A stretch of DNA of 64,000 nt from Psammoneis japonica (lineage: Eukaryota). A program made the translations under genes and the position numbers. The notes beneath the pieces are model-generated. The model was not told where the DNA came from. It did no database searches and worked only from the letters and a program-made list of their open reading frames with translations. The stretch is taken from contig QPGO01000066.1 in NCBI GenBank assembly GCA_008632985.1, forward strand, positions 265,771 to 329,770, in the 5' to 3' direction. Position 1 is the stretch's first letter. Every line of letters begins with the position of its first letter. This document shows positions 1 through 64,000 of the stretch, in pieces.

Positions 1-394
1 GTGAGAGACAAGGAAGACACAGACGTCGTGGAAGACTGTCTGAAGCCGGCTGCAAGGATGGAAACAATGCTGCTGCTCCCGACACTTTTGGCAGTTCAGA
101 AGCACCGCCTCACAGTGATTCAGAACCTGCAACAGGTGATCATGGCAGAACCATGGGCTCCGGTGAGAAGTTGGTCCACGCTGATCTGTCGGATGATTTT
201 GCAAATGTGAGCTCCAACAGTCCAGCAGCAACTGTCGGAATCAGGAAATCCTTGAAAACACAACCGAAACGTGGATGTCATGTTGGGCATTTGGGGGAGT
301 TTCTTTAGCAGCAATGGGTGTTGACACAAGATTCTAAGACACCAATTTGATGGTTTGCAGAGAGCATGATCGGATGATTGGGGTTGGGAAATCC

Positions 395-535
395 GACGCG
401 TTCCAGGTCTAGGTGGGACCTCGCACTGCTGAACTGTGACATCGACAGTTTTTTGAATCACGTCGTATGTCGCGCACGTAGATTTCTACGTGATTTTTTC
501 GACATTTTGTGTCATTTTACGGTGCACTTGTTGAG
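395..535 (-). repeat. 141-bp inverted duplicate of the right end of the adjacent MITE (784-924)
   Basis: 395-535 is the reverse complement of 784-924 with one mismatch (C503 versus T, i.e. A816). Confidence 0.9.
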
Positions 536-924
536 ACGCGTTCCAGCCCTGGGTGGGACTCCGTGTGACATTGGGCCCGTAGAATTCTACGTGCGAGCTC
601 CGTAGTACGAGAATTTAATTGGTGGACATGTTTGTCTTCAACATCAAATAAACTGCCAAGTTTGTGGTACAATTATGCCTCTTGCCACTCGACGTTTTTG
701 CAAATGCGCCTGCCCTACGCGATTCTTAAGACATTATAGAATCGCGCTGTAACAAAAAATGTCAAAAGTTGTTGGACGGATCGCTCAACAAGTGCACCGT
801 AAAATGACACAAAATATCGAAAAAATCACGTAGAAATCTACGTGCGCGACATACGACGTGATTCAAAAAACTGTCGATGTCACAGTTCAGCAGTGCGAGG
901 TCCCACCTAGACCTGGAACGCGTC
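535..924. mobile_element. Young non-autonomous TIR element (MITE), GAC-terminal family, still TpA-containing
   Basis: TIRs GACGCGTTCCAGCCCTGGGTGGGAC (535) and GTCCCACCTAGACCTGGAACGCGTC (to 924). Termini are homologous to those of 4562-4957 and 17798-18179. Flanks TTGA/TGGA do not match, consistent with a rearranged junction. Confidence 0.8.
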
Positions 925-1545
925 TGGAGGCGTTTGTTGTGTCGCTGGGTTGGCAACAGCGACATGGAGACAAACAATTGCTGTCATAAAAACACCTTCT
1001 GCTCTCAATCCTTTTGATCAAACCTCGCCAACAGGAGCAGAACAAACAATTTCTTGGTGAGCATTGACAGCAGGACAGCTGCAATGACCAAACGAACGTT
1101 CATGAGATGCGCGACGTTGGCGCAACATGACAAAGAACATCAATGTTTTGCGACTTGCCCACGGTGCTGAAACCCTGGTTTTCTTCCATGCTGGCACCAT
1201 GCATCATCTGCCGGGATTGTGCGCTTCTTTTCGTTGGCTTTTTCTTCCATTTGGGTGGGCACGGAGGCGTTTGGGGCATCACTGCTGATTGGTGACGGCG
1301 ACATTGAGGTGCAATTGTTGTTGTCACAAAACACTTTCTGCTGGCGATCCTTTTCGCCAAATGTCAGCAACAGGAGTGGAACAAACAATCCATTGAAAAG
1401 GATCGCCAGCAGAACAGCTGCAACAAGGTTGGCACACAACAGACTGAAATGGGTTTCATCACGGCGATTGACACAAGAAGGGTTGCGCTCAACTCGAAAA
1501 AGTTGCTCAAGTGGATGGACGTACAGACTTGCGGGGGGTCTCCGT
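925..1545 (-). mobile_element. Truncated inverted copy of the TTAA-flanked element at 36217-37734
   Basis: The reverse complement aligns with about 36217-36801, including the terminus CGG(A/G)GACCCC..AAGTCTGTACG. The flank reads TTGA where the other copy has TTAA. Confidence 0.75.
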
Positions 1546-2394
1546 CAACTGGTTGCTGGGATTGACTGCAATCAACCTCAATGCAAACTCGACTGCAATG
1601 ACCTGATTGTCGGGAAAGAGCCGAGGTCACAATCACAATCAAGGAAGCAAAGTTGTTGGGCACAGACGAATTTTAAGATCTTCCAAGTGCTGCTCTGCTG
1701 ATCTTTGCCCCATCATTTTCCTTGGCAGTTGGCAGGAATGTCGACCCCAGTTCGGGAGTTGAAAGCAGCGCAACTTTGAGCCAACAGGTGCAGCGCAACA
1801 TTTTGTTGGCAACATCATTTGGTTTTTTGACAAGGCGGTGCAGCGGCACACAAGGCACCGCTCCGCCAGCATCATTTGAGGTTGTGTGTGTGCTGTTTGA
1901 GAAGGCAAGGAGCCATTGCAAAAGACCACTGCCAGAAAGAATCATTGGCTTGTTCACAGGATGAGAATTTTGTTTGCAGTTGTGGGCATTGTCATCTTCA
2001 TGAAGAAGCAGCTGTTGGAGATGGCATCCTCGGTGTGCACCCAGAGCTCAGCTTGAGACACTTTCCACTGTGACATCCCAAATGCTTTGATTTTCCCAGA
2101 GGTGAAACATGATTTGTGTGCCGGCACTTGTTGATGTCAATGAAAGACAATGTGTCAACCTGCGTTGGTCGTCACACACCAGCAAGAATCTTTTTCAGAC
2201 AAATGAGCAAAACAAAAGATCAGGAACACTCTGTGCAGATCCATGCAGCGCAAAAGTTGCTGATGCACTCCAGCTCTGGGTGGGACCTCGCACTGCTGGG
2301 ACACACAGCATTTTGTCGCCAATTGCGACGTTCCCTTGAATGAGTTGGACGATTTGTCATGAAAAAAGCCCTTTGAGACAAATTGCAATGTGCA

Positions 2395-2830
2395 GCCACT
2401 GACAAGAGTTGATGCATCATGGCAACGTGTTGCAGCCTTTAAATGTCACAAAGGGTGTGACAAAAATGACCTTTTGTCTGCATGCATGCTGCATTGTGAA
2501 TTCACAGCAGAGTGGTTCGTCGCAACCATTGGGCAGGAGGCCAGGGGTTCGAAACCCTGAGTGGGAGTTGTCTGCAGCAACGTTGATCACTGTCGAATGC
2601 ATGAAACTCTGTGCAGTTCTGTGTGTTCCTTCATGCGTGCCCACACTGTTCCGCCAAAACCATGCAGTGTCAGTGCATGTCAGCAAAGAGCCGCATGGAC
2701 GCGTGACACATGGGGAGGAGTGCAACACACTGCCACTGACAAGAGTTGATGCATCACGGCGACGTGTCACAGCCTTTAAATGTCACAAAGGGCGTGACAA
2801 AAATGACCTTTTGTCTGCATGCATGCTGCA
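2395..2830 (+). repeat. Pair of 99-bp direct repeats (2395-2493, 2732-2830)
   Basis: Both read GCCACTGACAAGAGTTGATGCATCA...GCATGCATGCTGCA. They differ at TG/CA and CG/TG sites. Confidence 0.85.
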
Positions 2831-2974
2831 AAATTTCAATCGTTGGCAATGAACAAGACAAAATCATCGCTCAATTGGTGGCGGCGTGTCCCATGCACAA
2901 ACGTTGTGTCAACTGCAGTGCCACATGATGAACTTAACTTTCAGCAAAGACTGCACTTTCTGATTGATGTTTTG

Positions 2975-3467
2975 TGGCGATTTTGCACGACAAATTTTGT
3001 CGGACATGACAAATTTTGTCAGACGTGCGACAAATTTTGTCAGACGCACGACAAATTTTGTCGCATCCGACAAACCCCGACAACATGCGACAAATGCTGA
3101 CAAACGCCGACAAGAGCCGACAAATGCTGACAAATGCCGACAGATGGACGTTTGTGACATGCCGACAACGCTCCCCAACATTCAGAAGTGCCCAGTTGCA
3201 TGGACGTGCTGTCTCCACCAGATTCGCCTGCCGTTCGCAAGAGAGCTGCCCACTGACAAAAGGTGCAGCACAGCAACACACACTGGCACATTCCGTTCCA
3301 CCACGCAGAAGCATGTGATGTTGTCCCGGTGCGGTGTGCGGCGTGCGGGGGGGCGTGGTTGTTTCGTTCGTGAGTGGTTGTGTTGTGACGTGTCACGTCG
3401 AGTCATGTCATGTGCCGACAAATTTTGTCGGATGTCCGACAAATTTTGTCGTGTGAATTTTCGTCGA
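2975..3467. mobile_element. MITE-like element with palindromic subterminal repeats
   Basis: GACAAATTTTGTC occurs four times at the left end (about 21-bp spacing) and twice at the right end, followed on the left by about 10-bp GACAAAYGCY repeats. Ends are inverted-similar; TSD unresolved. Confidence 0.65.
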
Positions 3468-3658
3468 TGACATCGATCGCCAAGTTCTGTCAATTGCCCC
3501 ACTCATTGAAACGACATCGCCAAAGTGCAGGTTGTTGGTTGTAAATGACATTGATCATTTTGTCGCTTGGTTGAACAATGTTTCTGTCCCGTTTTTTGCC
3601 AACCCAGACATTTTGTTGCAATTCACATCTTTTTGCAACAAATCATCAACTCGTTCAA

Positions 3659-4187
3659 CACGGGATCCGCGGATGCACCAGGGGAATCTGTGAAATGCGG
3701 GATGAAAGGGGAAAGGGGCAAATGTGAATGGTGGAAAAGTGACATGCCATTGTTTTACCTTGAGGGACCCTTCAGTCAGCCAAACTCGCTCATTGCCAAT
3801 TTGACCCTCGCAGGTCCGCCTTTTCGGGGTCATTGAATTGTGAGAGCAGATGCGGTCTCGAGAAATGATTTCATGTGTTTTGTTGGACCATTGACATTGT
3901 GCAAATCTGAAAATGACACACATGAAAAAAGTGAATTTTCAATTTTATATGACCTTCACAGCCACATGTGTTGTGTGACAATCAATCCTCAAGACGCGTC
4001 CCGTCTCACAACATTTTGACACCCCCCATGAGACGGACCTGTGATGATGGTCAGATGAGATGTGTGCATGTTCGGCTCACCAAAGGGACCCTCAAGGCAC
4101 AATGACAGCCCCTCACTTTCCCACCATTCCCATTTGCCCCTTTCCCCTTTCATCCCGCAATTCCCGGGTGCACCCGTGGATCCCGCG
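3659..4187. mobile_element. TTAA-flanked non-autonomous element with long (>100 bp) TIRs, piggyBac-like
   Basis: Left end CACGGGATCCGCGGATGCACC...GGGATGAAAGGGGAAAGGGGCAAATG is matched in reverse complement at the right end. Flanks are TCAA (3655-3658) and TTAA (4188-4191). Confidence 0.75.
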
Positions 4188-4561
4188 TTAAGAAAATGTC
4201 GCCAAATGCAACAAAATGCCGTGCGTCCCTGAGCTGTGACACAATCATTTTTTGTCATCCGTTGCATGTTTCTCACGCACATTTCTCCATGTTCTGTCAT
4301 AAAAAATTGCTCCACACTGCCTGTTTTGCAAAGCCAAGGGCTTTCTGTTGTCTGCATTCATGACAACAAAAATGTGCTGGGTGTGTTCTTTGATGTCTGA
4401 AGAATGTGCCCGGGCATGCTGCAAAGAATGCACTTCAAGTGTGGAGGAGGAGACACGTTCGCAAAATTGCCTCTTTTTCTGTTGGCGATCATTCATGTGT
4501 CCATTGCTTGACAATTTTGCTGCGGAGCTCGCACGCAGAATTCTGCGGGCCAAATGTCACA

Positions 4562-4957
4562 GACGCGTTCCAGCTCTAGGTGGGACCTCGCACCACTGGA
4601 CTGTGACACAATTGTTTTTTGTCATCCGTCGCACGTTTTGCACGCACATTTCTACGTGTTCTGTTGCAAAATGTTGTTCCACACTGCCTCTTTTGCGAAG
4701 CCAAAGGCTTTCTGTTTTCTGCGTTTGTGACAATAAAAATGCGCCGGGTGTGTTCTTTGATGTCTAAAGAATGTGCCCGGGCAAACTGCAAATGACGCAC
4801 TTCAAATTTGGAGGAGGAGATGCGTTCGTAAAATTGCCTCTGTTTCTGTCAGCGATCATTCACATTTTCATTGCTTGGCAATTTTACCACGGAGCTCGCA
4901 CATGGAATTCTGTGTGCCCAATGTCACAAAAAGTCCCACCTGGGATTGGAGCCCGTC
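4562..4957 (-). mobile_element. GAC-terminal MITE inserted into a related element
   Basis: GACGCGTTCCAG...TGGAGCCCGTC with TSD CACA (4558-4561, 4958-4961). The body is similar to the host segment at about 4230-4560. Confidence 0.85.
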
Positions 4958-7900
4958 CACAAAAAGTCCCACCTGGAACTGGAGCCCGTCTGCTGCTGTC
5001 ACAGCAGGTCTGCACAATCCCTTTGTTGGGCTTTCTTGCTCATGGGAAGTTTTGTTGGTTTGTTGAGTGACAAAACACATTGCTCAAAGAGGAAGGATGC
5101 AACAAGTCATTCTTGGTCAAAACAACTTTTAACTCAGACATCACGACAGGAATTTGTTTGAGAAAGGGCAGAGCAGTTGCTTGACAAAGAAGATTCTGCA
5201 ACAGGTTGCTCTCACGTCAAAATGACTTTAAGCTCAGACATCACAACAAGCATTCACTTTTAAAGGGCAACATTGTCCCAAGTTCGTGGAGCTGCATTGG
5301 CCCCACAAAGCTTTCATGGGACAACTGATGCAAGAGATTTTTGCTCGGGAGATTGGGGCACTTTCTCCACAGCTCCCCCAAAACAACCAACATGATGCCA
5401 TTGCAACCAGTCAGCTCTCACTTTGTCCAATGGTTCAGTGTCGACAATTGGTTGTTCATTGGACAGTCACCAAAACTAATTTCACATCGGCACACCTCCA
5501 TCAGGGTTGCCACACATCGTTCTCCATTGCTCACACACCACATCTGCTGTCGACTCATCACATGCATGACATTGCTGTCCACAATGGGAACAACCTTAAA
5601 AACCATTTTCCAGAATTGCTCAGTCGTCAACATCAGAATCAACAGCACCCAAAGTGGTGTGATGCATTTGGCAATTTTGCAAATGCCCAAACACCCCAAT
5701 GACTCAAATGACCAAAGTGACATCAAATTGCAACCGTAAAAAAAGTTGAAAATCCCCCAAATGACAACCTGCCTGGAAAACAAGATCATGAAGGCATGCT
5801 TTTCTCTTCACCAAATGAGCCGCCATGAACCATTTGCAATGAACTGGGAGCATCATAAAAAACTTGCATTGCTTTTTTTTGCAATGGTTGAAAAACCCCA
5901 TTTTTCATTTGGGGTCAGGCACTCATGAACCTGCCATTCCGGTGCAGCCAAAATCAGTGAAACGGCTCAATTTCTTTGCCTGTTTGTCAGACTGCGCAAT
6001 TGCTGTGCAATTGTGCAATCAACCAATTGCTGCTCTGCAGAGATGCAATCAACAACTGATTGCAATCTGATTGCCGCAGAAAACTTTGCAACTGGTTGAC
6101 ACTCAAAAAATTTGTTTGACATTTGAACAAGGAGGCTGTTGCAGTGATTTGCTGTTGAGTGCAAAAAAAACTGAGATTTTTCAGCACCCGCACCAGATCA
6201 TGCATGCATGCATGCACATCATGCAGTGCAATCAAAGCACAACAAATTGACATCTCAAGAACGCAGTCTGCTGTCATCATGCACTCACCTGATGCTGATC
6301 ACACAACAAATGGCAAGCCCAACACAAGTGAGCTTGTGATGCAACATGGCCTCCTGAGCAATCTCAGCTGAGGCAAAACAAAAAAAGTGAGACCATCAGA
6401 GAGGTGGCCAAAAAAGGTGAGCTGGTCACAGGGCATTGTTTGGCACTTTGACCTGGTGAGCGCACTCTTGGATTTGTTGCGCCAGCCCATGCTCGCTTGT
6501 TTTCATTTGACCTTTTTTCATTTGCACTTGACATTTTTGTTTGGCCTGCATGTGGTCATTGCCCCACCATGGCCAAAATGTGTGTTTTGTTTTTTCACAT
6601 TCCAACCCAAACGCAACAATGGTCACAACAGTCCGGCACCATTTCACTCAAATCTGTGAAGTTGCACTCAATTGTCATCACAGACATTTTCATCCAGCAT
6701 TTTTTCAAAAATGTCAATGAAAATGTTTTTGATTCTCAGGGGTGCAATTTTGAATCTGTGCCACTTTTTTCAAGTCAAGAGAAAACACCAAAGGGGGGGA
6801 GGGGCAGCTTCTTGCAATGGCGTGCAACAAAGCAGCATGGACACAGCAAGTGCAGGCAAACATGTGACACAAAAAACAATGAGCAAACATTGCAACTGTG
6901 GTGCAGAGACAGAGCAGTCTGAGCAAGCAGATGGTCAATGGCCAAAAGGCTGGCAAAGACACATCATCAAGGTGAGAGATTGTGTCAAAAGAGAAGTTTG
7001 TCTGAGCATTGCCCTCACACTTGGTGCAAAACAATTGGACAAAACAGGCACGCTGCACAAAAACAAGTTTTGCCGCAAGTTTCATTGGGGAATTGACATT
7101 GAGCAAGATGCATGGCTGACACCAGTGGTGCAACAAGAAAAGGAACAACTCTCAGCTCTGACAGACATTTCAAAAATGAGCTTGAGAGCATTGCCAACAA
7201 GGGGCTCATGGAAAAGGAGACAATGCAAAGAAGAGAAGGTGTGCAAGGTGACTCAAGTGCATTGCACCCCATCACAAAGAAGAAAAGGTGTGCAACGTGA
7301 CTCAAGCACATTGTGCCAAGCAAGCAACTCGAGCCCAGCAAAAGAAGGCATGAAAGATGATGCAGGATGCCAAGGAAGAGCAAGGGATGGTCACCAAGAG
7401 CTGACTTGGCTGATGGGAAGATTGGTGTGGAACACTTTCAGCCAGCCACAGAAAGCAAAGACCGCTTCACAAACTGGGATCTGGTCATCTGCCAGCGGGA
7501 GGGCCCTTGATGACATTTCCCTGGTGTGCTCATGCCTTGTTGAGGTGTGCAGGGTTTGCAGCATCAACAAGCTGTGGGGGCAGCACAGCTCTGGCTTTTT
7601 CTTCATTGGGCACTCAAGAAAAAGTGGGCACAAGCCATGCAGTGCTTCTTTTTTGGCGGCAATCCTCTCCCTCCTTTTGTTTAGATTGAGGTGCAGTGCT
7701 GTTCTTGGGGGGGGGGGGGGGCATTTGTTGCTTTTTTTGTCTGCAGCTGGTCAGCTCCTCTTGCACAATCCTTCTGCAGTGATGACCCGGTCAGGACTCC
7801 CCAAAGCGATGCTTGCCTGTGGGCTCTTGTTCTTGCACTTTTGGTCAATGACCCAAGCATTGTCGTTGCATCTCTGTGAAAACTTGCACTGCCAAGAGGG

Positions 7901-9333
7901 GCCTTGTCAAGCTTTTTTCAAGAATGAGATGAAGCTGTTGTGGGGAAAGAACACAATCACGCAAGGAGCTCAGCTTTGTGTCAAGAACAAATTGCCTGCA
8001 CAAGAGAGCAAACTGCAAAGAAGAACTGTCTTTCTTGCTGCTCATTTTTCAATTTGGCATTGCATGATCTGCCTGTCCCATCTGACCTCACTGGCACCTT
8101 TTTTGCTCTTGTTTTCATCTCTGGAGCACTGGCTTGATTTTTGGTGGTTGTTCAAGAGGGGGGTTGGATCTCACAACTGGTGCCTTGCCCCACACAAAGT
8201 TTGCAGCTGTGTTTCTCTGGACACGAACCAAGATTGCATGCCCATTCCACCACCAGTGCTGCAACACCAGGAGGCTGGGTTTCCACCTTCTCATCAAACA
8301 CTGGCCCAGCCTGTTCTTTGAGATCCCAGCCACACCAGCACCACGCATGGAGCTCACAAGAAGGGCACCCCACTTCTCGACACATCTGGAGCAACACATG
8401 TCTCCCACTGCTGCTGCTGGCCATTGCTTGCAGAGGCAAGCATTCTCTGGGGACTGTTTTTAACACATGTTTTTTTTCAATGTCTTGGCCACTTTGTTGC
8501 TGGCATGGATCCCAACTCAGCACATTTGTTGTTGCTCTGCTGCCACCTCATTTTGCTGGCATCAAGGATGATGATGGCAACTTTCTTGTTGAAGGCCACA
8601 GCAAGCCACAGCATTGTGCTTTGGATCCACAGGGACAATGTGGGGTTCCCAGTCTATTTTGTCATTCCTTCTCATCATGATGTTGGATCACTGGTGTGCA
8701 CATGGTGCTGATTGTGTTCAATCCCAGTGTGTGCTGCCCACGACACATGACCACACACCATCCTTTCAACTCATTGACTCTGGTGTTTTGACTGCCAGGC
8801 TGGATCTTCCTCCAACTGCAACCGCACCTCATGGTGTCACCAAAGGGAAGCACCCAACAATGCTTTGCCACCCATGGTCATGTGTCTCCATGCTGCACGT
8901 GCAACCAGCACAAGAAGCTTCTTCTTCTTCTTCTTGAAGAGGCCTGCCACACACAGCTGTTGTCAAGGACTGCAGCCAAAACACTGAGAAAAGTGAATGA
9001 AATGGTTGATGTCATCATCAAATCCATGGTCCATTTGGCTGTCAAAAGCAATGATGTGTGGAGTGGCCAGACAAGCAACAGTGGACATGCTCGCTGTTTT
9101 CTGTGCATTTCTTCTGCTGCCTGCTGGGCTGGCTCCCCCCTCCTGGCTCTGCCTTGAGTTGGCGGTGGTGTGGTCTGGTGACAATGTGGCCTCCTCCACA
9201 CTCTCATGCTTGCATCCATCTCAGCGTCGTCATCAATTTTCCATCATCATTCTGTTGTTGGTCAAAGGCATTCGGGCTGTAGACTGCATGCAAGCAACAT
9301 TTTTTGTTGTCCAGTTTTTTGTCACACACCAGC

Positions 9334-9911
9334 ATTCAAAAAATTTGAGCCAGTTTCCGCTTGCCACCAGCTGAGCGAGAAGCACGCATGCCGTGGTGCT
9401 GATGCATGTAGAGCGTTGAGTTTCGAATGCTTGGGACAGTTCTTTTCTTTTGTTCTGCACCCCACTGCACCGCCAATGGCCATGGCGTTGATCCCTGTCA
9501 TTCATTGGCAGCCCCTCTTCCAACACATCTGTTGCTTCCACCCAACTTTCCCGCCACCATCCAACATGTCCACCTCTGATCCTTCTTGTGATCATCTCAC
9601 AGCGGAGTTAGCTGCTGCTTGCCACTTGCTCCACTTCCCAAATTTCTTCCATTGAATTGAAAAAAAAACCGTTCGATCGGGCCACAAATTCGGCTTGTGG
9701 CAGCTCTTCCAGAAAGTTGTTGCAAGCCTGTCTTCGCAGTTTAGTCTCTGCATTGTCCATTGTCTGTAGAGCATTCATGGTGCTTTGCTGTCGCTCTGAT
9801 TGTGCAACTGTGCTCCTGTGAGAAGTGGTGGTCTGCTGTCAGTTGCGACACTGCTCTCTAGCTAGAAGATGCCTCACGACTCACTCCTTCCGTGTGTGTG
9901 ATGTGTTGCTG
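9334..9911 (+). pseudogene. Decayed, internally deleted duplicate of locus about 18592-21328 (5' of HA gene joined to 5' of HNH-like gene)
   Basis: 9334-9618 aligns to about 18592-18890. 9619-9907 aligns to about 21034-21328. Confidence 0.9.
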
Positions 9912-9912
9912 C

Positions 9913-12900
9913 TTGTGGCAGCACAGGGGGAGGGACAGATGCATCCACCTCCCACCGCACGCAGCCTTGAACGAACCTGAATGCCAGTGGCATTCTTTGC
10001 AACTCGTCACCGCCTGTCGAGGCCGCAGCAGTGGTTGTAACTTTTTGAAGAAGGGAGCGACACACACCAACCTTTCTCCCTTCATGGCTGCTGTCCCTCC
10101 TGTGGCAGCCGGTGGAGCACCTCCGGCTGACGTGTTCCAGTCCCAGGTGACGCACAAAACGACAATCGGATTTCGAACACAACTCATGTGTGTTTTGCTG
10201 TGTGAAGCATTTTAACAAAAATGCTCAGACGGATTGACTTTTGTGGGCTTCTGGAGCATGCACATTTAAACAGTTTTTTTGAGGGGAATTCAAATCCTCA
10301 TGGGATGTGTGTCACAAACTTCCTCAGCAGACTCAATGCTGATTGCACGTCAGCAGATTTACACTGAGATTTTCTTGCAGGTGGAAAACCCACCAAGTGG
10401 CATCGTAGAAAGACACGCTCAGGTGACATCCAAATGACGGCAACATTTTCGCCGAAAATCATCCGTTTTGTCACGAGTCTTTCAACGCAATGAAAAACAC
10501 AGATGGCACAATGACAATGACATTGCAACACTCACACGAGTCTTGTCAGTGTTGCAAAACATTCACATTTGTGTGAATCTACACTTTTGGTGGTGAAAGT
10601 TTGATCGCAAGTTGGGGACCGCGCAAAAATCGCGCAAATGTCGTTTTTGTGCACGATTTGGTTCACGTGCGGCTGGAACACGTCGGCTCCCCCAAAAACA
10701 TGCCACGACAAGTGGACAAGTCAAGGAGATCACTTGGGTGGGGAGCATGCGAATTTAATCCGTCGGTGCGACACCACCATCGCTGCTCCCGAGCCGGCCA
10801 CCACGCCACTCGAGCACATCATCGACTCGAGCGACGTGGCACCCAAGGCCTTTTTGGCGCTGGTGTGGCAAGGCACAGGTTGTCGCATCACCTGCATCCA
10901 CCGGCCCTCTGTGTGCATCAGAGACCCGGTGGAGACCTTGCCATGGGATGGACGCATGTTTTGTTTTCACGGAGATGTCCTGCCGGGTAATTTTGTTGCC
11001 ATTCACAAGATGCCCAACACTTCGTTCGACATTGTGGGGCCTCAAATGGTGCCTGCTGTGGCCAACATGGCCGCCCTCGAAGGCACCTTGGTGGATGACA
11101 ACGACTTGACACCTCCGCAGACCGATGGCGCCCCGGACACTGACACAATCTACGTCCGCCGTCTCGCACAAGTGCCCCACGCCTGCCTGCATCCAGCGCT
11201 GACCCGGGATCTCACCCCACTGCAAGCCTGGTGGGAACCAGCAGGAGCAATCCAAAATGACGGTCGCGCAGGGGACTTGAGTCCTCTCATCGACTGGTTG
11301 CGCGCGGCCCTCACCACCAACACTGCGGTGAATCCAGATCCAGTCCATTGTCCAGGTGACCGCACCACCGCCTTGCCGCCACTTGCGGTGGAAGCCAGAT
11401 TGCAAGAGCATCGTTGGCATGCATTGTTGCAAGACCTGCCCGCCTTGGATTCAACAGCCGTGGACAACACCGACCGCATGCCAGCCTTCGCTGACATGGT
11501 CCGAGCCGATGCAGTGTGCACGGAAGCAACATGCTCTGCAGCCACAGCCGCAGCCGCAGTGCCTAAAACTCTGGTGGAAGCCTTCCCACAGACCACACCC
11601 GTGTGGCTCTTGCTGTTGAGCGCACCAGACGATGCAGCCTTGCCCACGCTGCTCCACGCTTGGGCCAATCTCGTGTTGCACCTGCAGTTTCGAAGGAGCT
11701 GCACGAGATGGCATTGCAAGGGAAGGTTGCACCTCACGTGCACCAAGTGAACAACCCAACCGCCGGTGTGTCACCTTTCACCTGTGGCTTCTTCCTTGCT
11801 GGACAAGGTTCTGCCGTGCAAGTCTGGGCCGAACGCTGCGACCTTGCGTTGGCAGGCAACCTGACACCTGCTGTTGCAGAACAAGAGGAATTCCGCACCA
11901 AGGGTGCACAGCTGCCGACATCCACTTGCCATTGTGGAAGCATGCTCCAAGCCACCAGCTTGGTCTTGGATGTCATCCAAGGCTCAGACCACCCCCATGC
12001 TGTGGCTTTCCGGCAGTTTTGCTTGGAAGACTGGCGGGACATGGTCGACTTGCTCGAGCAATCCAGAGCCCTGCTGGCAGAAGGAAACGTCCTTCCCCGC
12101 ATTTGCCGCGAGGTGCAGATGCTCGTGGGGGTCTGCCTTTGCAGGCTCATGCAAGGCGGGGTGCCCCGGGTGCCCGACTGCACCGCAGTGGCGCACAAGG
12201 TGCCACATGGGCAATTCTCCCTGCTGGCACAGTTGCCCCATCATTTGCTTGGCCAGCCAGACAGGGCGATCAATCCCCAGATGAGCTCAACCAGCGCCCC
12301 CAACAGTGGGACCACCTCTGCACCAGCTGCTGCCGCTGGGCGTCGCGACCCCGGTGCGGCCGTCACACTCAAACAGCACCAACGCTCGAACTCCCCTGTG
12401 TGCCGTGCGCCTCGGCAGGCGTTGGGGTCATGTCGCCAGCCGCGCCATCACCAAAATGCTCCCAAGTGTTGGCCGCCGCCTTGCCACATCTGGGATTCCT
12501 GCCCAAGGACGTCACTGCACGCAGCCTCCGAGCCGGTGGTGCCGTGGCACTTTTGTGCACCAAAGTAGACACCGACATCATCCGTCTTGTCGGATCTCAA
12601 CGAAAATCCTGAACCACGGCAACTTCACGTTACTCCCGGGTTCCGACATCCCCCCCGTTGCACAAAATGTCATCAATCAAGCCCAACCCCTTGTCACTTG
12701 TCGGCACTCCAAGAGTGTCAGATCGGAGGCGGTCTCTGTTGCTGGTGAGCCAAAAGAGGGCAAGAAACCCCAGCAAAGCGCTGACACCACCAACTGCCGC
12801 CTCCCAACTGCAGTGGGACGCACCCCCCAGCTGCGTTGGTGGCAAACAGCCATTGTGGCAGCACAGGGGGAAGGACAGACACACCCACCTCCCACCGCAC

Positions 12901-13146
12901 GCAGCCTTGAACGAACCTGAATGCCGGTGGCATTCTTTGCAACTCGTCGCCGCCTGTCAAGGCCGCAGCAGCAGTTGCAACTTTTTGACCCTCCACTCCC
13001 ACCCAGTGCCACCTCATCGGACGCGGTCTCTGTTGCTGGTGAGCCAAAAGAGGGCAAGAAACCCCAGCAAAGTGCTGACACCACCAACTGCTGCCTCCCA
13101 ACTACAGTGGGACGCACCCCCCAGCAGCGTTGGTGGCGAACAGCCA
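9913..13146 (+). mobile_element. Ngaro-type (DIRS order) tyrosine-recombinase retrotransposon, internally deleted
   Basis: Split direct repeats A1 9913-10048, B1 12722-12852, A2 12853-12988, B2 13016-13146. YR C-terminal motif LGFLPKDVTARSLRAGGAVALLCTKVDTDIIRLVG lies at about 12490-12595. A frameshifted gag-like ORF1 remnant lies at about 10740-12360. No RT/RNaseH was recognised. Confidence 0.85.
10129..10684 (+). mobile_element. GAC-terminal MITE (556-bp subfamily) inserted in the Ngaro element
   Basis: GACGTGTTCCAG...CTGGAACACGTC with TSD GGCT (10125-10128, 10685-10688). An inverted homolog is at 41264-41821 and a partial one at about 16330-16550. Confidence 0.9.
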
Positions 13147-13339
13147 CGGCAAGATGATGCAGTGTCGTCATTGACGGCCAGACCGAATTTGTGTTTTTGA
13201 ACCATTTTTTGAATTTCTCCTCATTGGAATTTGGAGCCTGCCCCAGAAGTGGCTGATGTCACCACTTTGCAGCAAAATTTTCAGGGATTCCATTGTGCAT
13301 GCTTTTTCCTCGGCTTGATTTGTCTGATTGTCTGTTTGC

Positions 13340-15005
13340 TGTTGCCACGGCAAAGCCAATGTTGTTCAAGGAGAGCACTGGAGAGGCAAAGTCACTGTTG
13401 TCAGTTGTTTCGGTTGGGCACCACCTCAGGATGGCACCAACACAGGCTGGTTGTTGGGCCCTCCTGTTGCACATCATTGTGCACTGTGCACCAGGAGTGT
13501 GGGTCAGCTTGTTGTCAGAGTTGCCAGGCAGAAGCGCAACAGCACTTAAAACACAGAATTTTGTTCTTTCTTGCCTGAGCACCAGTTTCAACAGTGCAAA
13601 TCATTGACCACTCGGTGGTCTGGTCAGGCAAAAGTTTCATTTGTCCCCTCCGTCCTGTCTGTCCTGTCTGTGTCCCCTGAAGACATGCAGACGGCCCTCT
13701 GAAGACTGCATGAGTGCAGCGTGATGTGACAATGCATGTGCACGCCGATCGATCAAGCACCAAGTCAGAGTTGTCCTTTTGCCACGTTTGAGGTGCAAAG
13801 TTTGGGACAACGTTCGTGGTGCAGTGACATGTGCACCTGGCAGTGGTTTGCCCCATCCCAGCCACCAACAATTCCAGACCTGCAGGTGCACTCCCCACAC
13901 ACCCAAACACGGACACAACAGCCAATCACACACATCACTGGGGTTCCAAATTCCCCTTTCCCTGCTCAAATTCCATGTGGCACGCAGCTGCACCATCTCA
14001 TTGTCCACCTGTCTGCTTCTTCCCGGGAATTGTGCAGCCAAGCAAACAGGGAGGCACCTTCCCTCCAGGCTCATCATTGTCATGAATTGGATGAGCTTCA
14101 TTTTCTTTTTTGGTGAGCACTTGCAACCAATTGACCTGCCTGTCATGTTGTTGAAACTTGTCTCTATTCTTCAGATCAGTGATGCACACTGTCATGAAAG
14201 CACAGCTGGCATGTTGGGCTTCTTTGCTGCTCTTTCCATTGCTTTTTGCCTTTTCTCTCTGTGGAATGATTTGGAGGATCATTTTGCACCTTAAAAAACT
14301 CTGGTTGCAGAGTTCTGCCATCGTCTTCATTCACAAACCAGCCAAAACAATGTGGCTTGTCTTCTCCTGCATTGCAAGAGTCTTCAGGACAAAACTTGCA
14401 TGGCGCTTGGACCAACTTGATGGCATGATGTGCTCCAATTGAACAACACCTGATTGGTCCATTGCATCATTGTAAAATTGTTTCTCTGTGAAACAGGCTT
14501 CCTGACAATCTTGTTCCTGCATGGAAGGCTTCTTCTTCTGAGGCCTGCTGAGTGAACCTCCCACATCCATCTTGCCCATCATTGTCTGCAGCAATGCAAT
14601 GTTTCTCTCCTCTCCATCTTTGGCCTGATCATGACACCTCTTTGCCACTGTCATGCATTGCAGCTTGTTCCAGGAAATGTTTGGCAAAGGACAAAGCCCA
14701 ACTTGTGGATTCTGTTGACAAGCACCTCAGTCATTCTGCCCATTGTCTTTGCAATTGGCTGGCCATGGTCAAGCCAATGTTCAAATCAAGCATCAAAGAA
14801 GCCAAATGCCTGGCTGTTTGTGGCACCAGATCCATCGCAAGCTGCTTCGGCTCGGCATCACCCATGGGTGATGCCAGCTCTGGCCAACTGTTGTTTGCTC
14901 CTGCTGCATGATTGGTGCGCTGGGGGTGTGGGTCAGCTTGTTGCTGGAGTTGCAGGGTGGAAGCACAGCAGCACTTAAAACACAGATTTTTGGTTTTGTC
15001 ATGCA
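13340..15005. repeat. Two decayed paralogous segments (about 13340-13575 and 14760-15005)
   Basis: Shared blocks AAGCCAATGTT and GTGTGGGTCAGCTTGTTG...CAGCACTTAAAACACAGA. Origin not recognised. Confidence 0.6.
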
Positions 15006-16329: not shown

Positions 16330-16550
16330 TGGCGTGACTCATTTGTCACAATGAAAAACATTGATGGCACAAAAACAACAACATTGCAGTGCTGATGCAC
16401 AAGTCCAGTTGGCATTGCAAAACATCAATGTTTGGATGAATCTGTGCTTTTGGTGGCAAAAGCTCAGTTGCAACAAGTCAGAGACTGTGCAAAAATCATG
16501 CAAGTGCCATTTTTGTGTGCAGTTTGGTTCACACATGGCTGGAGCATGTC
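16330..16550 (+). mobile_element. Partial decayed copy of the 556-bp GAC-terminal MITE (right end)
   Basis: Aligns to about 10480-10684 and ends GGCTGGAGCATGTC. Confidence 0.7.
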
Positions 16551-56568: not shown

Positions 56569-58764
56569 TTACCCTTTCCATGCCATCCCAATCATCATTC
56601 GGTGGAGGTCAGCTTCTGTGGCACCGGAATCTCGGAGAAGTCGGGCAATCGCGGAGGCGCTCCGTTTCACCAGAGCATATTGTTTGTCGCTCAAATCACC
56701 GGGTAGCTCCACTTCGCACTCGAGTCTGGTAACGACGCCTTTCCTACCAAAGAGACCTTTCCGTTTCACTTCCACTACAGTTCTACCATACGTGACGGTG
56801 CCATGCTGCGAAATCTTTCTCAGGTTCGTTTCTATGTGATCTTTTCTCCGAATCACGGCCTCGTTCCAACCTTTATCGTCGTCCATGAAAACGCCGGAGA
56901 AGGTCACCCCCGTAACGGATACACCATCAGCACCGGCTGCAGAACTTTCTGTGTCGTCGGCTCTGTTGCCTGGACCTTCCAAAGTTGAGTGCTCTTTGGC
57001 AAAGCGGACGGACTCGGCGGGCAGAATCCGAGGCCCCCCAAGCATTGTTTCAATATATCGCAAGAGGTGTTCCCGGAGATTTAAATAGGGCATTGAGGGC
57101 AGTCCCAAGGACTCCAGTGCTTTTGGCCAGAGAGTCTCCAGCAGATGGTCGGCAGCCATATTCGTCTGCTGCCAACCTTTATCGTCGTCCATGAAAACGC
57201 CGGAGAAGGTCACCCCCGTAACGGATACACCATCAGCACCGGCTGCAGAACTTTCTGTGTCGTCGGCTCTGTTGCCTGGACCTTCCAAAGTTGAGTGCTC
57301 TTTGGCAAAGCGGACGGACTCGGCGGGCAGAATCCGAGGCCCCCCAAGCATTGTTTCAATATATCGCAAGAGGTGTTCCCGGAGATTTAAATAGGGCATT
57401 GAGGGCAGTCCCAAGGACTCCAGTGCTTTTGGCCAGAGAGTCTCCAGCAGATGGTCGGCAGCCATATTCGTCTGCTGCGGAATCCAGACAAGGTTTTTAA
57501 CGGCGGGGTGATAACCATCAAGATTGGTCAAAAGCCAAGGAGCCAGCAACACACAAAGCCCTTTTTGTTGCCGTCGACGATGCATGAACGTATTCAACGC
57601 CTTCACGCAGAACTCTCGCTGCCGAAATGAGGGAGAAAGAATCACCAAGGCGTGCGTGCATCGATAGGCTGGATGGACCAAGGCCTCGACCTCTGACTGT
57701 CCCCAAATGATGCCACTTCCATCGTCCAGAAAGGCGTCAACCTTGGCAATCTGTGTCAAGAACCAATGGGTGGGACGGGCGATATCATCCTTGGCGGCGT
57801 CTTGACCCGTATAACAAATAGAAACGTACGGCGTGCTGTTCATGGGCCACACCTTTTCGGGGCTCTCACATTCGGGAAAGGGCAATTTCCCAACATATCG
57901 TTCGTCTCCAGAGGACGATAGCAAGAGTGTATCCGTGCCATCGACTGCAGAAGCCTCGGAGTTCATCGGTGCCGATGATGGCAGAGGCGCCCTCATGGCA
58001 GGGGAAACTTTTGGCAAGGAGCGCCAACAGTTACTAACCCCTTTTTGCCAATCCCTATAAGCGACCCCACCCTCCAGCAATCCAGCACGGGCCAACGGCG
58101 ACATAAGGTACAACAACTCGACTCCGTCCGTGTCCAAAAGGGCAACAGCGGGACTCTCCTCTTTGCCATCGGGGACAATGCCATTTCGCACACCTTGAAC
58201 CGCAAAACAAGGCGTAAGATGTGTCAGTATCAATGTGTCGGTAAGAGGCAATCCGCCGTCGCTGGAAAGGAGCATGTCAAATAATTGTCCCAGCAAAGCA
58301 TCCGGTGCGTCCAAGATCATGCAAATGCATTTCTTCCAGATCGCTCCAATGAGAATTTCCTCCAGCTGTGAATCTGTTGCTCCGGCAGCCTTCAAATGGC
58401 TCGCAATGGCACGGGCAGAAGCCTTCACTATCTCATGGTTCCCTTCGCTTAAATCGTTGGGTAGTGAAGTGGTACATTCGAGTTTGATGATCACACTTCC
58501 AAACCAACCTCGGATCTTTGGCCTGCCGTACGTCACAGAGCCAAACTTTTTTATCTTTCTGAGATTTTCTTCAATGTAGGACTTTTGACTCATGACATTA
58601 CTTGCCCAATCAATGTTTCCCTCCATGTTGGCATTCGAAAATGCCACCGCCACGACGGTATGCCCCGACTCGGAATAAGCCTGAGCCGACGAAAACAGAG
58701 TATCATCCTCTGCACGGTCCGACCCTTCGAGGAGGGTGTCGTCAGCCCTTCCAGAGTCCCCCAT
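56569..58764 (-). CDS. TIR-like domain protein flanked by two copies of an unrecognised domain of about 110 aa
   Basis: YVSICYTGQD...AFLDD...G......CTHALVILSPSF.QREFCVKALNTF follows the TIR/TIR_2 pattern. N- and C-terminal domains share IE.NLRKI..G.VTYGR...LEC...LP.DLS......VK.SA.AIA..L...GAT...L....IG..WK. Confidence 0.75.
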   Translation of the reverse strand: MGDSGRADDTLLEGSDRAEDDTLFSSAQAYSESGHTVVAVAFSNANMEGNIDWASNVMSQKSYIEENLRKIKKFGSVTYGRPKIRGWFGSVIIKLECTTSLPNDLSEGNHEIVKASARAIASHLKAAGATDSQLEEILIGAIWKKCICMILDAPDALLGQLFDMLLSSDGGLPLTDTLILTHLTPCFAVQGVRNGIVPDGKEESPAVALLDTDGVELLYLMSPLARAGLLEGGVAYRDWQKGVSNCWRSLPKVSPAMRAPLPSSAPMNSEASAVDGTDTLLLSSSGDERYVGKLPFPECESPEKVWPMNSTPYVSICYTGQDAAKDDIARPTHWFLTQIAKVDAFLDDGSGIIWGQSEVEALVHPAYRCTHALVILSPSFRQREFCVKALNTFMHRRRQQKGLCVLLAPWLLTNLDGYHPAVKNLVWIPQQTNMAADHLLETLWPKALESLGLPSMPYLNLREHLLRYIETMLGGPRILPAESVRFAKEHSTLEGPGNRADDTESSAAGADGVSVTGVTFSGVFMDDDKGWQQTNMAADHLLETLWPKALESLGLPSMPYLNLREHLLRYIETMLGGPRILPAESVRFAKEHSTLEGPGNRADDTESSAAGADGVSVTGVTFSGVFMDDDKGWNEAVIRRKDHIETNLRKISQHGTVTYGRTVVEVKRKGLFGRKGVVTRLECEVELPGDLSDKQYALVKRSASAIARLLRDSGATEADLHRMMIGMAWKG
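56866..57478. repeat. Perfect in-frame 306-bp tandem duplication
   Basis: Units start at 56866 and 57172. The ORF track shows identical peptides 306 bp apart. Confidence 0.95.
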
Positions 58765-60630: not shown

Positions 60631-62285
60631 ATGGTCTTGAGCAGCTACTTAAACAGTTCACTGCGTAGAGCTTCTTCCTCTTCCAGTAGTGCCACGAAAT
60701 GCGTGCGCTTCCTATCATCTTCTGCTGGACGAGGTCACAAGAAACCTTCGTCGTTTGCTACAAAGTGCGCCTCTCTCTATCGTCCAAGTGCCGGTGCCGA
60801 TCAAGGACTCGCACCACCCGTCTACTTTGGAACCACGTTTACGTTAAACGATGCAGCCCACGGTGCGAGACTTCACGAGAAACGAGAAGGCCCTTATACG
60901 GATCAAGACGGCTTTGTTTATTCGCGCTGGGGTAACCCGACGAATGAGGCTTGCAGTCGCCAAATTGCAGCCCTGGAGGGGATTGACGACAATTCAGGAG
61001 GAGGAACGTTGCTCTTTTCCTCTGGAATGTCGGCCATTACTTCCTCTCTCATGTCGGTACTGAGGGAAGGAGATCATGCTGTATTCCCCTATACTGTTTA
61101 TGGCGGCACTCACGAATTCCTAAAGGAATTTGCCGTTCATTGGGGAGTCGAAATTGACTTTGTGGACGCAGCCGGACCCTACGGACCAGCTGCCTACAAG
61201 GCTGCCTTTCGCGATAACACCCGTGTGGTGTACACGGAAACGCCAGCGAATCCGACTTGTCGCCTCACGGATCTTGCCGGGGTTTCCGCTGTCGTGGATG
61301 AAGCATTCGGAACGGCCAGCACGGACGACACGGGTCGTGATTCCACCAAACGCCACCGCCCCTGGATCATGTGCGACGGTACATTTGCTACCCCCTACCA
61401 CCAACGCCCCTTGGATATTCCCGGTGTGGATGTGTCTATTCATTCCGCTACGAAGTATCTATCGGGCCATTCCGACGTGTTGGCGGGTGCCGTATCGTCC
61501 AACTCGGAAGCCTTTATGCACGGGCTTTCCAAAGTCAAAAAGCTTATCACGGCGCCTCTTAATCCAATGGACTCATTTCTCTTGACGCGTGGAATTCGTA
61601 CTCTGGATGTAAGGATGCAGAGGCACGGTGAAAACGCGATCCGAGTTGCAAGGTAAGAACATTACAACAAGAATGTAAACACGTCCACCGATCCTCCATC
61701 AATCCTAACAATACTTGACTTTCTCTGCCTGTCTCCTTTCGAAGATTGCTAGAGAGCCATCCTGCTGTAGCAGAGTGTTACTACCCAGGCCTAGAATCAC
61801 ACCCGGATCGTGATATTGCTGACGCTGCCTTTCGATCGGGACGTGAAGATGACGATGCTGAAGATGCCCTTACAACGCAAACATATGGTGGAATGATTGC
61901 CTTTATTGTACACGGAGAGGGAGATGAAGCTCTAAGACGTGCTCGAAGTAAGAAGTTGCCTTGCTGGTGATCATCATGTCTCTTGAGACGCATCTAGTTA
62001 CTCAAACGTTTTTCTCATTTTTGTTTCTCAGATGTATGCGAGCGACTCCGTGTGGTTAACTTGGCCGTTTCATTGGGCTCAGTGGAGTCGCTATGTGAGC
62101 ATCCTGCGTCAATGACTCATGCAATGGTCCCAAGGGAAGATCGGCTAGCTGGAGGTCTACATGATGGGCTCATTCGTATTAGTGTAGGTCTTGAACGAGC
62201 CCAGGATCTCGTGGAAGATCTTCAAAACGCTCTCGACCTGTGTGACGAGGACGACATGGACACTGATGAACGTCTACAGGCTTGA
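60631..62285 (+). CDS. PLP-dependent Cys/Met metabolism enzyme (methionine gamma-lyase / cystathionine gamma-lyase family), likely mitochondrial
   Basis: YSRWGNPT, FSSGMSAI, YGGT, ETPANPT, HSATKYLSGHSDV, AVSLGSVESL.EHPASMTH. Exons 60631-61652, 61745-61947 and 62032-62285. Ser/Arg-rich transit peptide. Confidence 0.93.
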
Positions 62286-63399
62286 TACTTTGCATATATT
62301 CAAGGTAAATCCATAGATAGCTTTCCTAAAGTACACGTACAATAATTATTTTGATAGGCTAGTTCATAGAGCACCTGCGCGGTAACAGGGCTGACTCTAG
62401 AACTGAAGAAAGGCAGCGCCTTTGTGAATCCTACGATTCTCCTGGAGGGACTTAGCACTGCTGAAAGGGATCTACTCCAATCGGTGTAGCCACTGGGTAG
62501 AGCAATGGCTCCCAGCAACTGACACCTGCAACATTAGCAGCCCCATTCGCCTGAAACACAAGACCACTGCGGCATCCCTTGGAGGCACACAAGTGGGCTG
62601 CTGCGGACCGGCAGGGGTCTGAGGAAGTGTGACAGATGGAGTTGCAGTGTCCATGCCTTGCCGTTAGCTCGGCCATTGGCACATCCCCGCACCACCAGTC
62701 AAATGGGAAGCACGCAACATCAACCTCAGGCACAGATTTGGGGAACCACCCGCGACAAGTGACAACAAGATGTGTAGTTTGAGCCATGTTTCTGCATGCA
62801 ATGCTGGTGTGTCTTGGATGTGCAGCATTGATCCATAGCTCCGCCACAGTCGGTGTGCGGCGCCTGGAACATCGGATTGAGCGAAGATCGTGGCACCAGG
62901 TGGAAGGCTGTTGTGGCCGCACACGAGCATGCAATGGTTTCTTGAACCAGCTGCTGGGGGATGCCAAATGCCAACTTCCTCTGTCCCTCTGGCAGCATTT
63001 CGGAGCACGCTCCATGCATTGCAGTGAGACAGTCCGCACCCGTGGCGGCAGAGAGGGAGTTGCAACCGTTGTCGTGGTGCCACAGTCCGTTGAAACTCAC
63101 GAGTCTTCTCATGATCAAGGATGTTGAACGGATCTCGTTGACTGCAGAATTCCCAACCATGCACGCAGCGCATCTGCTGTTTTTGGTCGAGCCTGCGCCA
63201 AGGTGCTTGCTCAGGCACACAACCTCTTGCATCCATTTCTTCTCGTCAATGCCAGTTGCCTTCTCGATTCTCTCCAAGGCAGCTTCAACTGCACTGCAGC
63301 GATTCGAAGTGATGTGGCACTTCCACCTGCATCTGAGAATGTTGAGGCCTTTTGAAAGCCATCCGCCGACTCCTCTCCATGCCGACATGAAGAGGCCCT

Positions 63400-63994
63400 C
63401 GATTGCCTTGATTGAATGCACTGCAACTGAAGAGGCAAATCCCAAGCCGGGGGCGGGAATGCACACGCCACCATTGCCTGTCGAGGGTGTTCCAAGGATC
63501 TCACAGCGGCAGAATGTTAAGCTGAAGCATGCAATGGCAGCAGATCCAGCTGCTTGGGCAAATTTATCGTGTGCGACGGCGTCAATGGCCGCTGGCATGT
63601 CACGGATGACTGCATGGTCGCAATCGCATGAAAACTTGCCCTTGGATTTGCAGCAGAGGTCACGCATCATGCAAACCCTGTCAACGGCGTTGTCAGGTTC
63701 TGGTTTGTTTAACTCGTCCCCACCATGCCCCAGGCCACACCATTTGCCACACGTGATGAGATCCCCAATCCCGTCGACCCCACCTGCAGGTGGCACCTTG
63801 AAATGGGTTTGTTTGGCAGGGCATGCACTGCTGTCCGGGCCGCCTGAAGCATCTCCAACCGCCACAGCTGCGGCATGCCTGGCCTCACACTGCTCGGGTG
63901 AGAGAGGAAGCACTGCAACCGGTTCGTCCATGGCGTTCGCAGAAATGGCTGGTTCGTCCACGGCGTTTGCAGAACCCTCCGGCAAACCTCTCAA
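63400..63994 (-). pseudogene. TpA-erased secretory phospholipase A2-like gene remnant
   Basis: CGKWCGLGHGG...PDNAVDRVCMMRDLCC...CDCD corresponds to the sPLA2 pattern YGKWCG.GY.G...D..D.CC..HD.CY with Tyr->Cys/His. 30-bp tandem repeat near 63920-63975. The 5' end probably lies beyond the window. Confidence 0.75.
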
Positions 63995-64000
63995 ATGGCG

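Follow-up and report, generated by a model that had tools for sequence, protein, structure and literature searches.

The 64,000-nucleotide stretch of the diatom Psammoneis japonica analysed here (contig QPGO01000066.1, positions 265,771 to 329,770 of the forward strand; hereafter the window) has lost nearly all TpA dinucleotides from about half of its length, and this loss very probably reflects a TpA-specific, flank-dependent and compartment-restricted A:T>G:C mutation of the DNA in place. Over the whole window the observed-to-expected ratio (o/e) of TpA is 0.31, while TpG and CpA stand at 1.51 and 1.50. The distribution of TpA o/e is bimodal, with 30 of 64 one-kb segments at or below 0.13 (many at 0.00-0.04) and the other 34 at 0.20-0.86, and TA-poor blocks (o/e ≤0.13) adjoin islands at 0.4-0.86 across boundaries that fall within about 0.1-1 kb. 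A first-pass annotation, made from the letters alone, had called the depletion compartment-restricted, as the one-kb segments bear out, and had extended it to more than half of the window. The near-absence of TpA is real, but the blocks as we delimited them (1-250, 1001-18250, 21751-26750, 30001-33000, 36501-42250 and 63001-64000) sum to about 32 kb, i.e., about half.

Within these blocks we counted 73 TpA against some 1,038 expected at the o/e of the normal compartments. The longest TpA-free stretch, 5857-7681 (1,825 bp), holds 0 TpA where about 72 are expected (Poisson P 3.5e-32), in keeping with the earlier observation of no TpA in 5858-7681, and the ordinary TA content that had been ascribed to adjacent genes is matched by a TpA o/e in the normal compartments of 0.53 inside long open reading frames (ORFs) and 0.61 outside them. 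Since the two values are similar, the loss of TpA is not a coding effect. The depletion is confirmed as real and far beyond chance. TpA density falls from 37.9 per kb in normal DNA to 2.5 per kb in TA-poor DNA at the same GC content, which lies at 0.43-0.52 in most one-kb segments and is alike in both compartments. Per kilobase, TA and CG are down by 35.4 and 32.4 in TA-poor relative to normal DNA, and TG and CA are up by 32.8 and 39.3, so that a joint loss of 67.8 is balanced by a joint gain of 72.1. The main blocks and islands, to which no strand is assigned, are as follows.

1001-18250: the largest TA-poor block, TpA o/e 0.00-0.13 per kb
21751-26750: TA-poor block, holding a dead DOMON fragment
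30001-33000: TA-poor block with 4 TpA in 3 kb and a CpG o/e of 0.10-0.17
36501-42250: TA-poor block with the palindromic repeat 38337-38757 and a dead GST fragment
63001-64000: start of a further TA-poor block, which leaves the window; 3 TpA per kb, GC 56%, CpG o/e 0.72
251-1000: TA-normal and CpG-normal island with 27 TpA and 48 CpG, nested in TA-free DNA
18251-21750: TA-normal island with a helicase-associated (HA) domain gene and a convergent ORF
26751-30000: TA-normal island with an 825-aa ORF at 27138-29615 on the reverse strand
42251-63000: long TA-normal, gene-rich compartment, TpA o/e 0.35-0.86 per kb

Evidence for the direction of change comes from internal pairs, in which a copy in normal DNA is compared with a copy in a TA-poor block. 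The copies concerned belong mainly to two host genes, to the ends of a gene pair and to a family resembling miniature inverted-repeat transposable elements (MITEs).

33130-35922, reverse strand: intact gene for a DOMON plus copper type II monooxygenase protein, its TpA content normal; serves as reference in its pair
22880-23190, forward strand: dead 5'-end fragment of the DOMON/copper monooxygenase gene, 6/6 TpA lost
46682-47716, forward strand: intact Xi-class GST (glutathionyl-hydroquinone reductase-like) gene with normal TpA
39530-39787, forward strand: dead 5'-end fragment of the Xi-class GST gene, 7/7 TpA changed
18605-19723, forward strand: HA-domain gene ORF in island 18251-21750
19983-21200, reverse strand: convergent ORF in the same island
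9340-9907, forward strand: partly mutated copy of the ends of this gene pair, 5/17 TpA kept in the alignment
17122-17417, forward strand: TA-poor copy of the MITE-like repeat 625-919, 13/14 TpA changed

Five independent pairs were used to count the fates of individual sites. Among 44 TpA, 19 had become TG, 12 CA and 7 something else, and 6 were kept; among 78 CpG, 42 had become TG or CA and 10 something else, and 26 were kept. The occurrence of both TpA products agrees with the strand symmetry claimed at first pass. That annotation's tally for the DOMON pair (2 CA, 3 TG and 1 CG) was reproduced exactly; its GST count, in which every TpA was changed, holds over a slightly longer alignment (3 CA, 3 TG and 1 AA), as does the predominant loss in the MITE pair over a longer one. 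Aligned TpA counts were 6, 7, 11 and 13 in gene copies and 0, 0, 4 and 1 in the corresponding TA-poor copies, while a control pair of two normal copies retained its TpA (17 versus 15). Only the copy in a TA-poor block is hit, and the functional paralogue retains its TpA.

The change is specific to TpA. Counted per base, A:T>G:C substitutions affect 34/88 positions at TpA and 36/615 elsewhere (Fisher p 1.5e-15), so that A>G is not equally elevated in all contexts, an outcome that had been set out beforehand as the sign of plain GC-biased conversion; A>G occurred at 6/102 sites after A, 7/90 after C and 3/84 after G. Of the changes at TpA bases, 34/39 are transitions (A>G or T>C) and 5 are transversions. 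The direction, proposed as TA to TG/CA, is polarised by an outgroup at two tyrosine codons of the GST gene. The intact gene encodes the motif NRYTLYV and all three solved Xi-class homologues shown read GRYHLYV, R-Y-x-L-Y being common to the fungal and plant proteins, while the TA-poor copy reads N*HTLC through CGA>TGA, TAC>CAC and TAC>TGC. Both tyrosines are present in 3/3 solved homologues, and TA is therefore the ancestral state and TG/CA the derived one.

Differences between the mutated copies themselves show when the mutations arose. Among adjacent double differences, TG stands opposite CA in 49/132 cases between TA-poor copies and in 1/17 between normal copies. Such an excess arises when the same ancestral TA (or CG) has been hit independently in each copy, which means that the copies were mutated after their separation. 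The TA-poor copies were mutated independently and in place, a result that is new here.

Survival of TpA also depends on the flanking bases, as judged from 72 surviving TpA in TA-poor DNA that were counted with their flanks. TTAA has 25 survivors against a count of 33 in normal DNA, and at least 23/25 of these have unrelated flanks and are independent sites; ATAC/GTAT has 0 survivors against a count of 186. Survival ratios descend from TTAA (0.80) through CTAA (0.18), CTAG (0.115), GTAA (0.09), ATAA (0.04), CTAC (0.03), GTAC (0.019), ATAG (0.016) and ATAT (0.011) to ATAC (0). By class, with R a purine and Y a pyrimidine, they are 0.008 for RTAY, 0.045 for mixed flanks and 0.30 for YTAR (chi-square p 6e-26).

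The relation of TpA loss to the decay of CpG is close, although the two are not the same. Most TA-poor segments have a CpG o/e of 0.06-0.4, the level to be anticipated in methylated repeats of a diatom, and CpG is strongly decayed in most of the block 1001-18250, being near normal at 1001-5000 and 10001-13000. The segment 3001-4000 combines a TpA o/e of 0.06 with a CpG o/e of 1.00, yet CpG decay without TpA loss occurs in 0 segments. In the five pairs 6/44 TpA were retained against 26/78 CpG, and arithmetic on these counts puts the per-site rate of TpA loss at roughly double that of the accompanying CpG decay. Since TpA loss has gone further than CpG decay and is present where CpG is near normal, it is faster than, or independent of, the decay of 5-methylcytosine (5mC).

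The consequences for coding potential are considerable. Changes of TA to TG or CA make no in-frame stop and remove TAA and TAG, and TA-poor DNA is therefore open in all frames. Tyrosine makes up 0-0.6% of residues in TA-poor ORFs versus 2.2-3.8% in genes. In simulated TA-free DNA the longest ORF averages 205 aa and reaches 465 aa at most, and the longest observed has 553 aa; ORF length is no evidence of coding here. Gene finders and classifiers of transposable elements will misread such tyrosine-free DNA, open in six frames. The targets identified in TA-poor DNA are host-gene fragments and the MITE family. The earlier statement that TA is erased from transposons stands in so far as repeat families and a MITE-like element are present, but what marks them is repeat structure only, with no Pfam domain.

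Several points weigh against this account of the window. The whole analysis concerns one 64-kb window of one assembly, in which no mutation is caught in the act. The reads available for comparison are three runs (X1-X3) of one sample from one study, X1 being possibly the source of the assembly, and their platform is unrecorded. The protein content of the TA-poor DNA gave nothing to hold on to: no Pfam family (0) was found in 125 ORFs of at least 100 aa and 15 longer ORFs, a scan that excluded 79 ORFs of 80-99 aa, and there was no match to a 381-aa ORF in a word-index search, 0 matches to the 553-aa ORF in a HMMER search against 1.84 billion representatives, and no usable match to a 423-aa ORF in the ESM Atlas. 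The TA-free stretches 1001-5000, 10001-13000 and 63001-64000 retain CpG at an o/e of 0.6-1.0, and the label of silent chromatin, like the silenced DNA of the first-pass annotation, is taken from CpG decay only. The agent named below is a guess.

Two further points concern the base after the mutated A and the order of TG and CA outcomes. In the bulk tetranucleotide balance the base following the mutated A appears to be C in 30.9 events per kb, T in 8.3, G in 2.3 and A in -1.8, an estimate of pyrimidine preference that compartment or ancestral composition could confound. Among 44 polarised events from nine pairs, a pyrimidine follows on the mutated strand in 30/44 and on the other strand in 21/44; pyrimidine was chosen over purine 17 times and the reverse 8 times, which is a weak lean. 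TG and CA outcomes fall into fewer runs than expected within pairs (12 versus 18.6, p 0.002; 31 events, tested post hoc), with p 0.01 over all 11 pairs, and the CpG control gives 22 against 22.1 expected (p 0.56). The bulk runs ratio of 1.011 indicates no clustering, to be compared with 0.973 for independent and 0.944 for patchy strand choice in a simulation built on the window's own normal DNA. The strand-run signal of the pairs is contradicted by this bulk test.

Among the alternatives to a mutational process, a sequencing or base-calling artefact, in which a modified base of heterochromatin is misread while the true DNA still carries TA, seems to us hardly credible. Nanopore sequencing is known to make systematic errors at modified bases, and a single sample of unrecorded platform leaves some room for this; the assembled reads speak otherwise. 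One Logan k-mer contig of X1 is identical to the window throughout the 4,910 nt of 30842-35751 and crosses the boundary between TA-poor and normal DNA at a single depth, equal to that of the adjacent gene, and another, over 22973-26840 (3,871 nt), has 6 differences and 3 gaps. Noisy reads could not yield contigs of 3.9 and 4.9 kb with so few differences, and a symmetric misreading of TpA would be expected to give a mixture of TG and CA at every site and to shatter the contigs. Instead there is a single definite outcome per site, paralogues differ in that outcome, and indels and other substitutions accompany the TpA changes. Because a separate k-mer assembly reproduces the TA-free DNA, no artefact of assembly consensus or polishing is involved, though X1 is no independent sample; X2 contigs are confined to gene parts and X3 gave no contigs. 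The differences between the window and X1 in TA-poor DNA (n=11) comprise 5 of the type TA<->TG/CA, 4 of CpG type and 2 others; with no polarity to them, and with alleles or paralogues as possible sources, they are no proof of ongoing activity. Single-copy X1 contigs over 17001-37000 show two depth levels, about 31 and about 53-63, which may correspond to haplotype-specific and shared sequence in a diploid. An explanation without any targeted mutator, by selection against TA, by GC-biased gene conversion or by elements that arrived TA-poor, we consider practically negligible. TpA is mildly under-represented in most genomes, and its o/e of 0.53-0.61 in normal DNA here is an instance, but host-gene fragments lose TpA only in TA-poor blocks, GC content is equal in both compartments, A:T>G:C outside TpA is confined to the 36/615 given above, and the TA-poor copies diverged independently after separation. 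An o/e of 0.00-0.06 over kilobases of non-coding DNA also lies far beyond any known selection on TA.

We conclude that in this nuclear diatom DNA TpA is very probably turned into TpG or CpA by A:T>G:C mutation at the A, or at the T that pairs with the A of the other strand. The process mutates DNA where it lies, in compartments that are poor in genes, rich in repeats and for the most part decayed in CpG; it spares genes and their flanks, and obeys a sequence rule by which RTAY is erased, mixed contexts are mostly erased, YTAR survives in part and TTAA is essentially immune. As far as the available part of its description goes, the footprint is the same as that of the TpA>TpG/CpA hypermutation in mutation-accumulation lines of Bigelowiella natans (Mettrop et al., bioRxiv 10.64898/2026.01.13.699255). 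An enzyme that is recruited to silent chromatin would be responsible, and a TadA/ADAT2-like adenine deaminase acting on DNA is our leading guess, ranked first at a confidence a little short of even. The tRNA substrate of TadA/ADAT carries U33-A34, in which the U preceding the edited A is invariant, and the bacterial TadA substrate continues with C35; the 5' T that precedes the mutated A here agrees with such a context. The footprint is strand-symmetric, and damage to A and damage to T are indistinguishable from sequence, which lends some room to a thymine-side chemistry, ranked second and in our view rather unlikely. A TET/JBP-type dioxygenase would make 5-hydroxymethyluracil (5hmU) or 5-formyluracil (5fU) at TpA in silent DNA, and the oxidised base would mispair with G or be subject to error-prone repair, producing T>C and, on the palindromic TpA, both TG and CA. 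It is a property of 5fU that it mispairs with G; polymerases, however, read 5hmU as T, and near-complete conversion would need a high rate of mispairing. Dinoflagellate repeats are enriched in 5hmU, for which work from the 1980s reported a TA/TC preference, but no motif emerged when Breviolum minutum was mapped at base resolution, according to the part of the source available (PMC11071213). A 2024 PNAS paper (PMC11572971) reportedly links 5hmU to the silencing of transposable elements. A limited search found no report of 5hmU in diatoms.

Error-prone repair, in which a Pol-eta-like enzyme, recruited to heterochromatin that is methylated or damaged, makes errors opposite T at WA (W being A or T) during patch synthesis, comes a poor third and is very improbable. 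The somatic-hypermutation hotspot of Pol eta is indeed WA with TA preferred, and co-occurrence with CpG decay would place the mutations where T:G repair patches arise. Yet an A that follows A shows no excess of A>G (6/102, in the range seen after C or G), Pol eta yields many transversions whereas 34/39 changes at TpA are transitions, TTAA is spared even though it is WA on both strands, and there are TA-free stretches in which CpG has hardly decayed. Pol-eta-type WA>WG repair, one of the candidates put forward at first pass, thus fits poorly. Returning to the deaminase, a wider extrapolation is that an adenine-based genome defence akin to the repeat-induced point mutation (RIP) of fungi is widespread in the SAR supergroup (stramenopiles, alveolates and Rhizaria), through a chromatin-recruited deaminase of TadA/ADAT ancestry with the motif R-T-A-Y and blind to TTAA; this we hold to be possible though doubtful. 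If true, both diatoms and chlorarachniophytes would have TpA erased from their silent DNA, and about half of the present sequence would have been rewritten. Elements would be disabled by Tyr>Cys/His and similar changes and never by a stop codon, and TTAA-dependent elements could escape.

Besides repeat families and palindromic elements, the block 1001-18250 contains dead remnants derived from the genes at 18596-21328. In the copy at 9340-9907 the counterparts of 18596-18852 and 21032-21328 abut, the inner 2.2 kb being missing, and since it fuses the 5' ends of two convergent genes it is a DNA-level duplicate and not a retrocopy. Either the HA-domain gene and its convergent neighbour would have been inserted as a 2.2-kb unit, or the copy at 9340-9907 would have lost them. 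One X1 contig carries a joint that skips 18852-21035, with about 20 other letters between, which match the window at about 9597-9617.

The island 251-1000 harbours a MITE-like element at 395-924 with 141-nt terminal inverted repeats that are 99% complementary. It is multi-copy, TA-normal and CpG-normal, and is presumably a recent insertion that is not yet mutated. As it remains TA-normal inside TA-free DNA, repetition alone is insufficient for the loss of TpA; position and time, or episodic activity, decide which DNA loses it. TA-poor relatives of the element lie at 4560-4967 and 17122-18179. The summed depth of X1 contigs over 17001-18334 is about 17,700-64,800 versus 30-60 for genes, which makes the family very abundant. 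Long palindromes are found in TA-poor DNA at 38337-38757, 3657-4189 and 41975-42169 (88%, 65% and 74% self-reverse-complement match, respectively), and these three may be hairpin-forming elements or remnants of foldback transposons. The TA-free stretches 10500-13000 and 63001-64000 are GC-rich (56-61%), retain CpG at an o/e of 0.65-0.85 and present several open frames on each strand; a protein homologue was not found for either. The former is flanked by 136-nt direct repeats (9913-10048 and 12853-12988, 93% identical), as in a small unit resembling a long-terminal-repeat element.

Some compartment limits are gradual, 21751-22750 being a graded transition into the nearly TpA-free 22752-26812. 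Fragments of the HA-domain gene at 19484-19802 and 26791-27095 are 78% identical, and the second, which keeps its TpA (15 versus 17), starts about where the TA-poor block ends, so that the compartment limit near 26791 may coincide with a duplication boundary. The gene-rich compartment 42251-63000 includes genes for GST, IF-2B, Myb, TIR and a Cys/Met-metabolism pyridoxal-phosphate (PLP) enzyme. The best matches of the PLP enzyme are diatom proteins of Cyclotella, Stephanocyclus, Thalassiosira, Fragilariopsis and Seminavis at 66-77% identity, none closer, and a metagenome scan with this conserved gene gave 6 loci of 1.3-2.1 kb, too short for compartments. A perfect 307-bp tandem duplication (100% identity) occupies 56866-57478 within a 743-aa ORF that has a weak TIR-domain match.

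To our knowledge, targeted hypermutation of selfish DNA has so far been known from fungi (RIP, C>T) and from the APOBEC/ADAR systems of animals. The first-pass annotation knew of no published description of TpA loss, which is outdated: a bioRxiv preprint of 2026 reports the same signature in B. natans, as TpA>TpG/CpA hypermutation of integrated nucleocytoplasmic large DNA virus (NCLDV) and virophage DNA. According to its available text, 231/302 nuclear single-nucleotide mutations in the mutation-accumulation lines lie in the integrated NCLDV and virophage sequences, nearly all of them A>G or T>C; every GC-biased mutation among these sits at TpA, and mutation in the two sequences is raised about 1000-fold, in some lines only. 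The same text counts 124 TpA-poor, CpA- and TpG-rich clusters in the genome, many without annotation, gives a Rho TpA of 0.45 for the NCLDV region, and proposes an ADAT2-like deaminase as the agent, citing amphioxus BjADAT2 as a DNA-acting ADAT (all 10.64898/2026.01.13.699255).

The likeness to the diatom, as far as the preprint's accessible text describes its case, extends to a TpA-only target, TpG or CpA products according to strand, almost exclusively transitions, and local confinement to silent or foreign DNA beside normal genes, with TpA-poor, CpA- and TpG-rich clusters as the long-term result. On the same basis the differences are that B. natans is a rhizarian and P. japonica a stramenopile, that integrated viruses are hit in the one and repeats, a MITE family and dead host-gene fragments in the other, that the DNA here is eroded to an o/e of 0.00-0.06 over about half of 64 kb, and that de novo mutations were seen there while ours are inferred. 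The words 'diatom', 'TTAA', 'flanking' and 'trinucleotide' are absent from the available preprint text, which does not connect its process with CpG decay and uses 'strand' twice, each time only to say that the product is strand-dependent; the flank rule (RTAY erased, TTAA spared) is absent from that text and is new here (10.64898/2026.01.13.699255). In the literature searched, most subscription journals lying beyond the search, no TpA loss was described in diatoms or other stramenopiles.

An A:T>G:C counterpart of the fungal and animal systems has accordingly been reported once, in 2026, in one chlorarachniophyte, and judging from the part of that report at hand the diatom footprint is far more advanced. 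The process is no curiosity of one alga and may be old within SAR, or have arisen repeatedly, and its targets include ordinary repeats and pseudogenes beyond integrated viruses. Diatoms offer genetics, transformation and methylome tools with which the enzyme could be found; the flank rule, with RTAY erased and TTAA immune, is a biochemical fingerprint for candidate enzymes, and a natural adenine mutator of double-stranded DNA with a defined motif would interest those working on base editing.

Fungal RIP, known from Neurospora and other fungi, is similar in being a hypermutation by transitions at a particular dinucleotide, which degrades repeats where they lie and leaves compartments of distinct composition. 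It runs, however, by C>T mainly at CpA and makes TpA and stop codons, whereas TpA is destroyed here and no in-frame stops arise; RIP raises TpA and AT content, while here TpA falls at unchanged GC content. RIP mutates both duplicates, in contrast to the gene copies of the window, which keep their TpA, though selection could mask part of this, and the multi-copy MITE-like element at 395-924 is still TA-normal. Deamination of 5mC shares the blocks and the TG/CA products, CpG depletion being present here, but it cannot remove TpA, whose loss is faster and occurs where CpG is nearly intact. The distinctness from both RIP and 5mC decay that had been claimed at the outset is thus upheld.

TadA, ADAT2-ADAT3 and the adenine base editors provide a fitting chemistry, A>I read as G with U before the edited A, with the difference that housekeeping ADAT enzymes do not erase genomic TpA. 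APOBEC3, which edits retroelement cDNA, and ADAR, which is known from metazoans and hyper-edits the dsRNA of repeats, resemble the present case as deaminase-based restriction of mobile elements with a neighbour-base preference. Their action on single-stranded or RNA intermediates leaves footprints on one strand, whereas here a single copy carries both TG and CA, the targets include host-gene duplicates made at the DNA level, and the copies were mutated once inserted. ADAR also favours U before the edited A, in the words of the preprint text available (10.64898/2026.01.13.699255). Set beside these systems, the diatom case is a further instance of a very recently described kind of hypermutation, to which it adds a flank rule and evidence of mutation in place.

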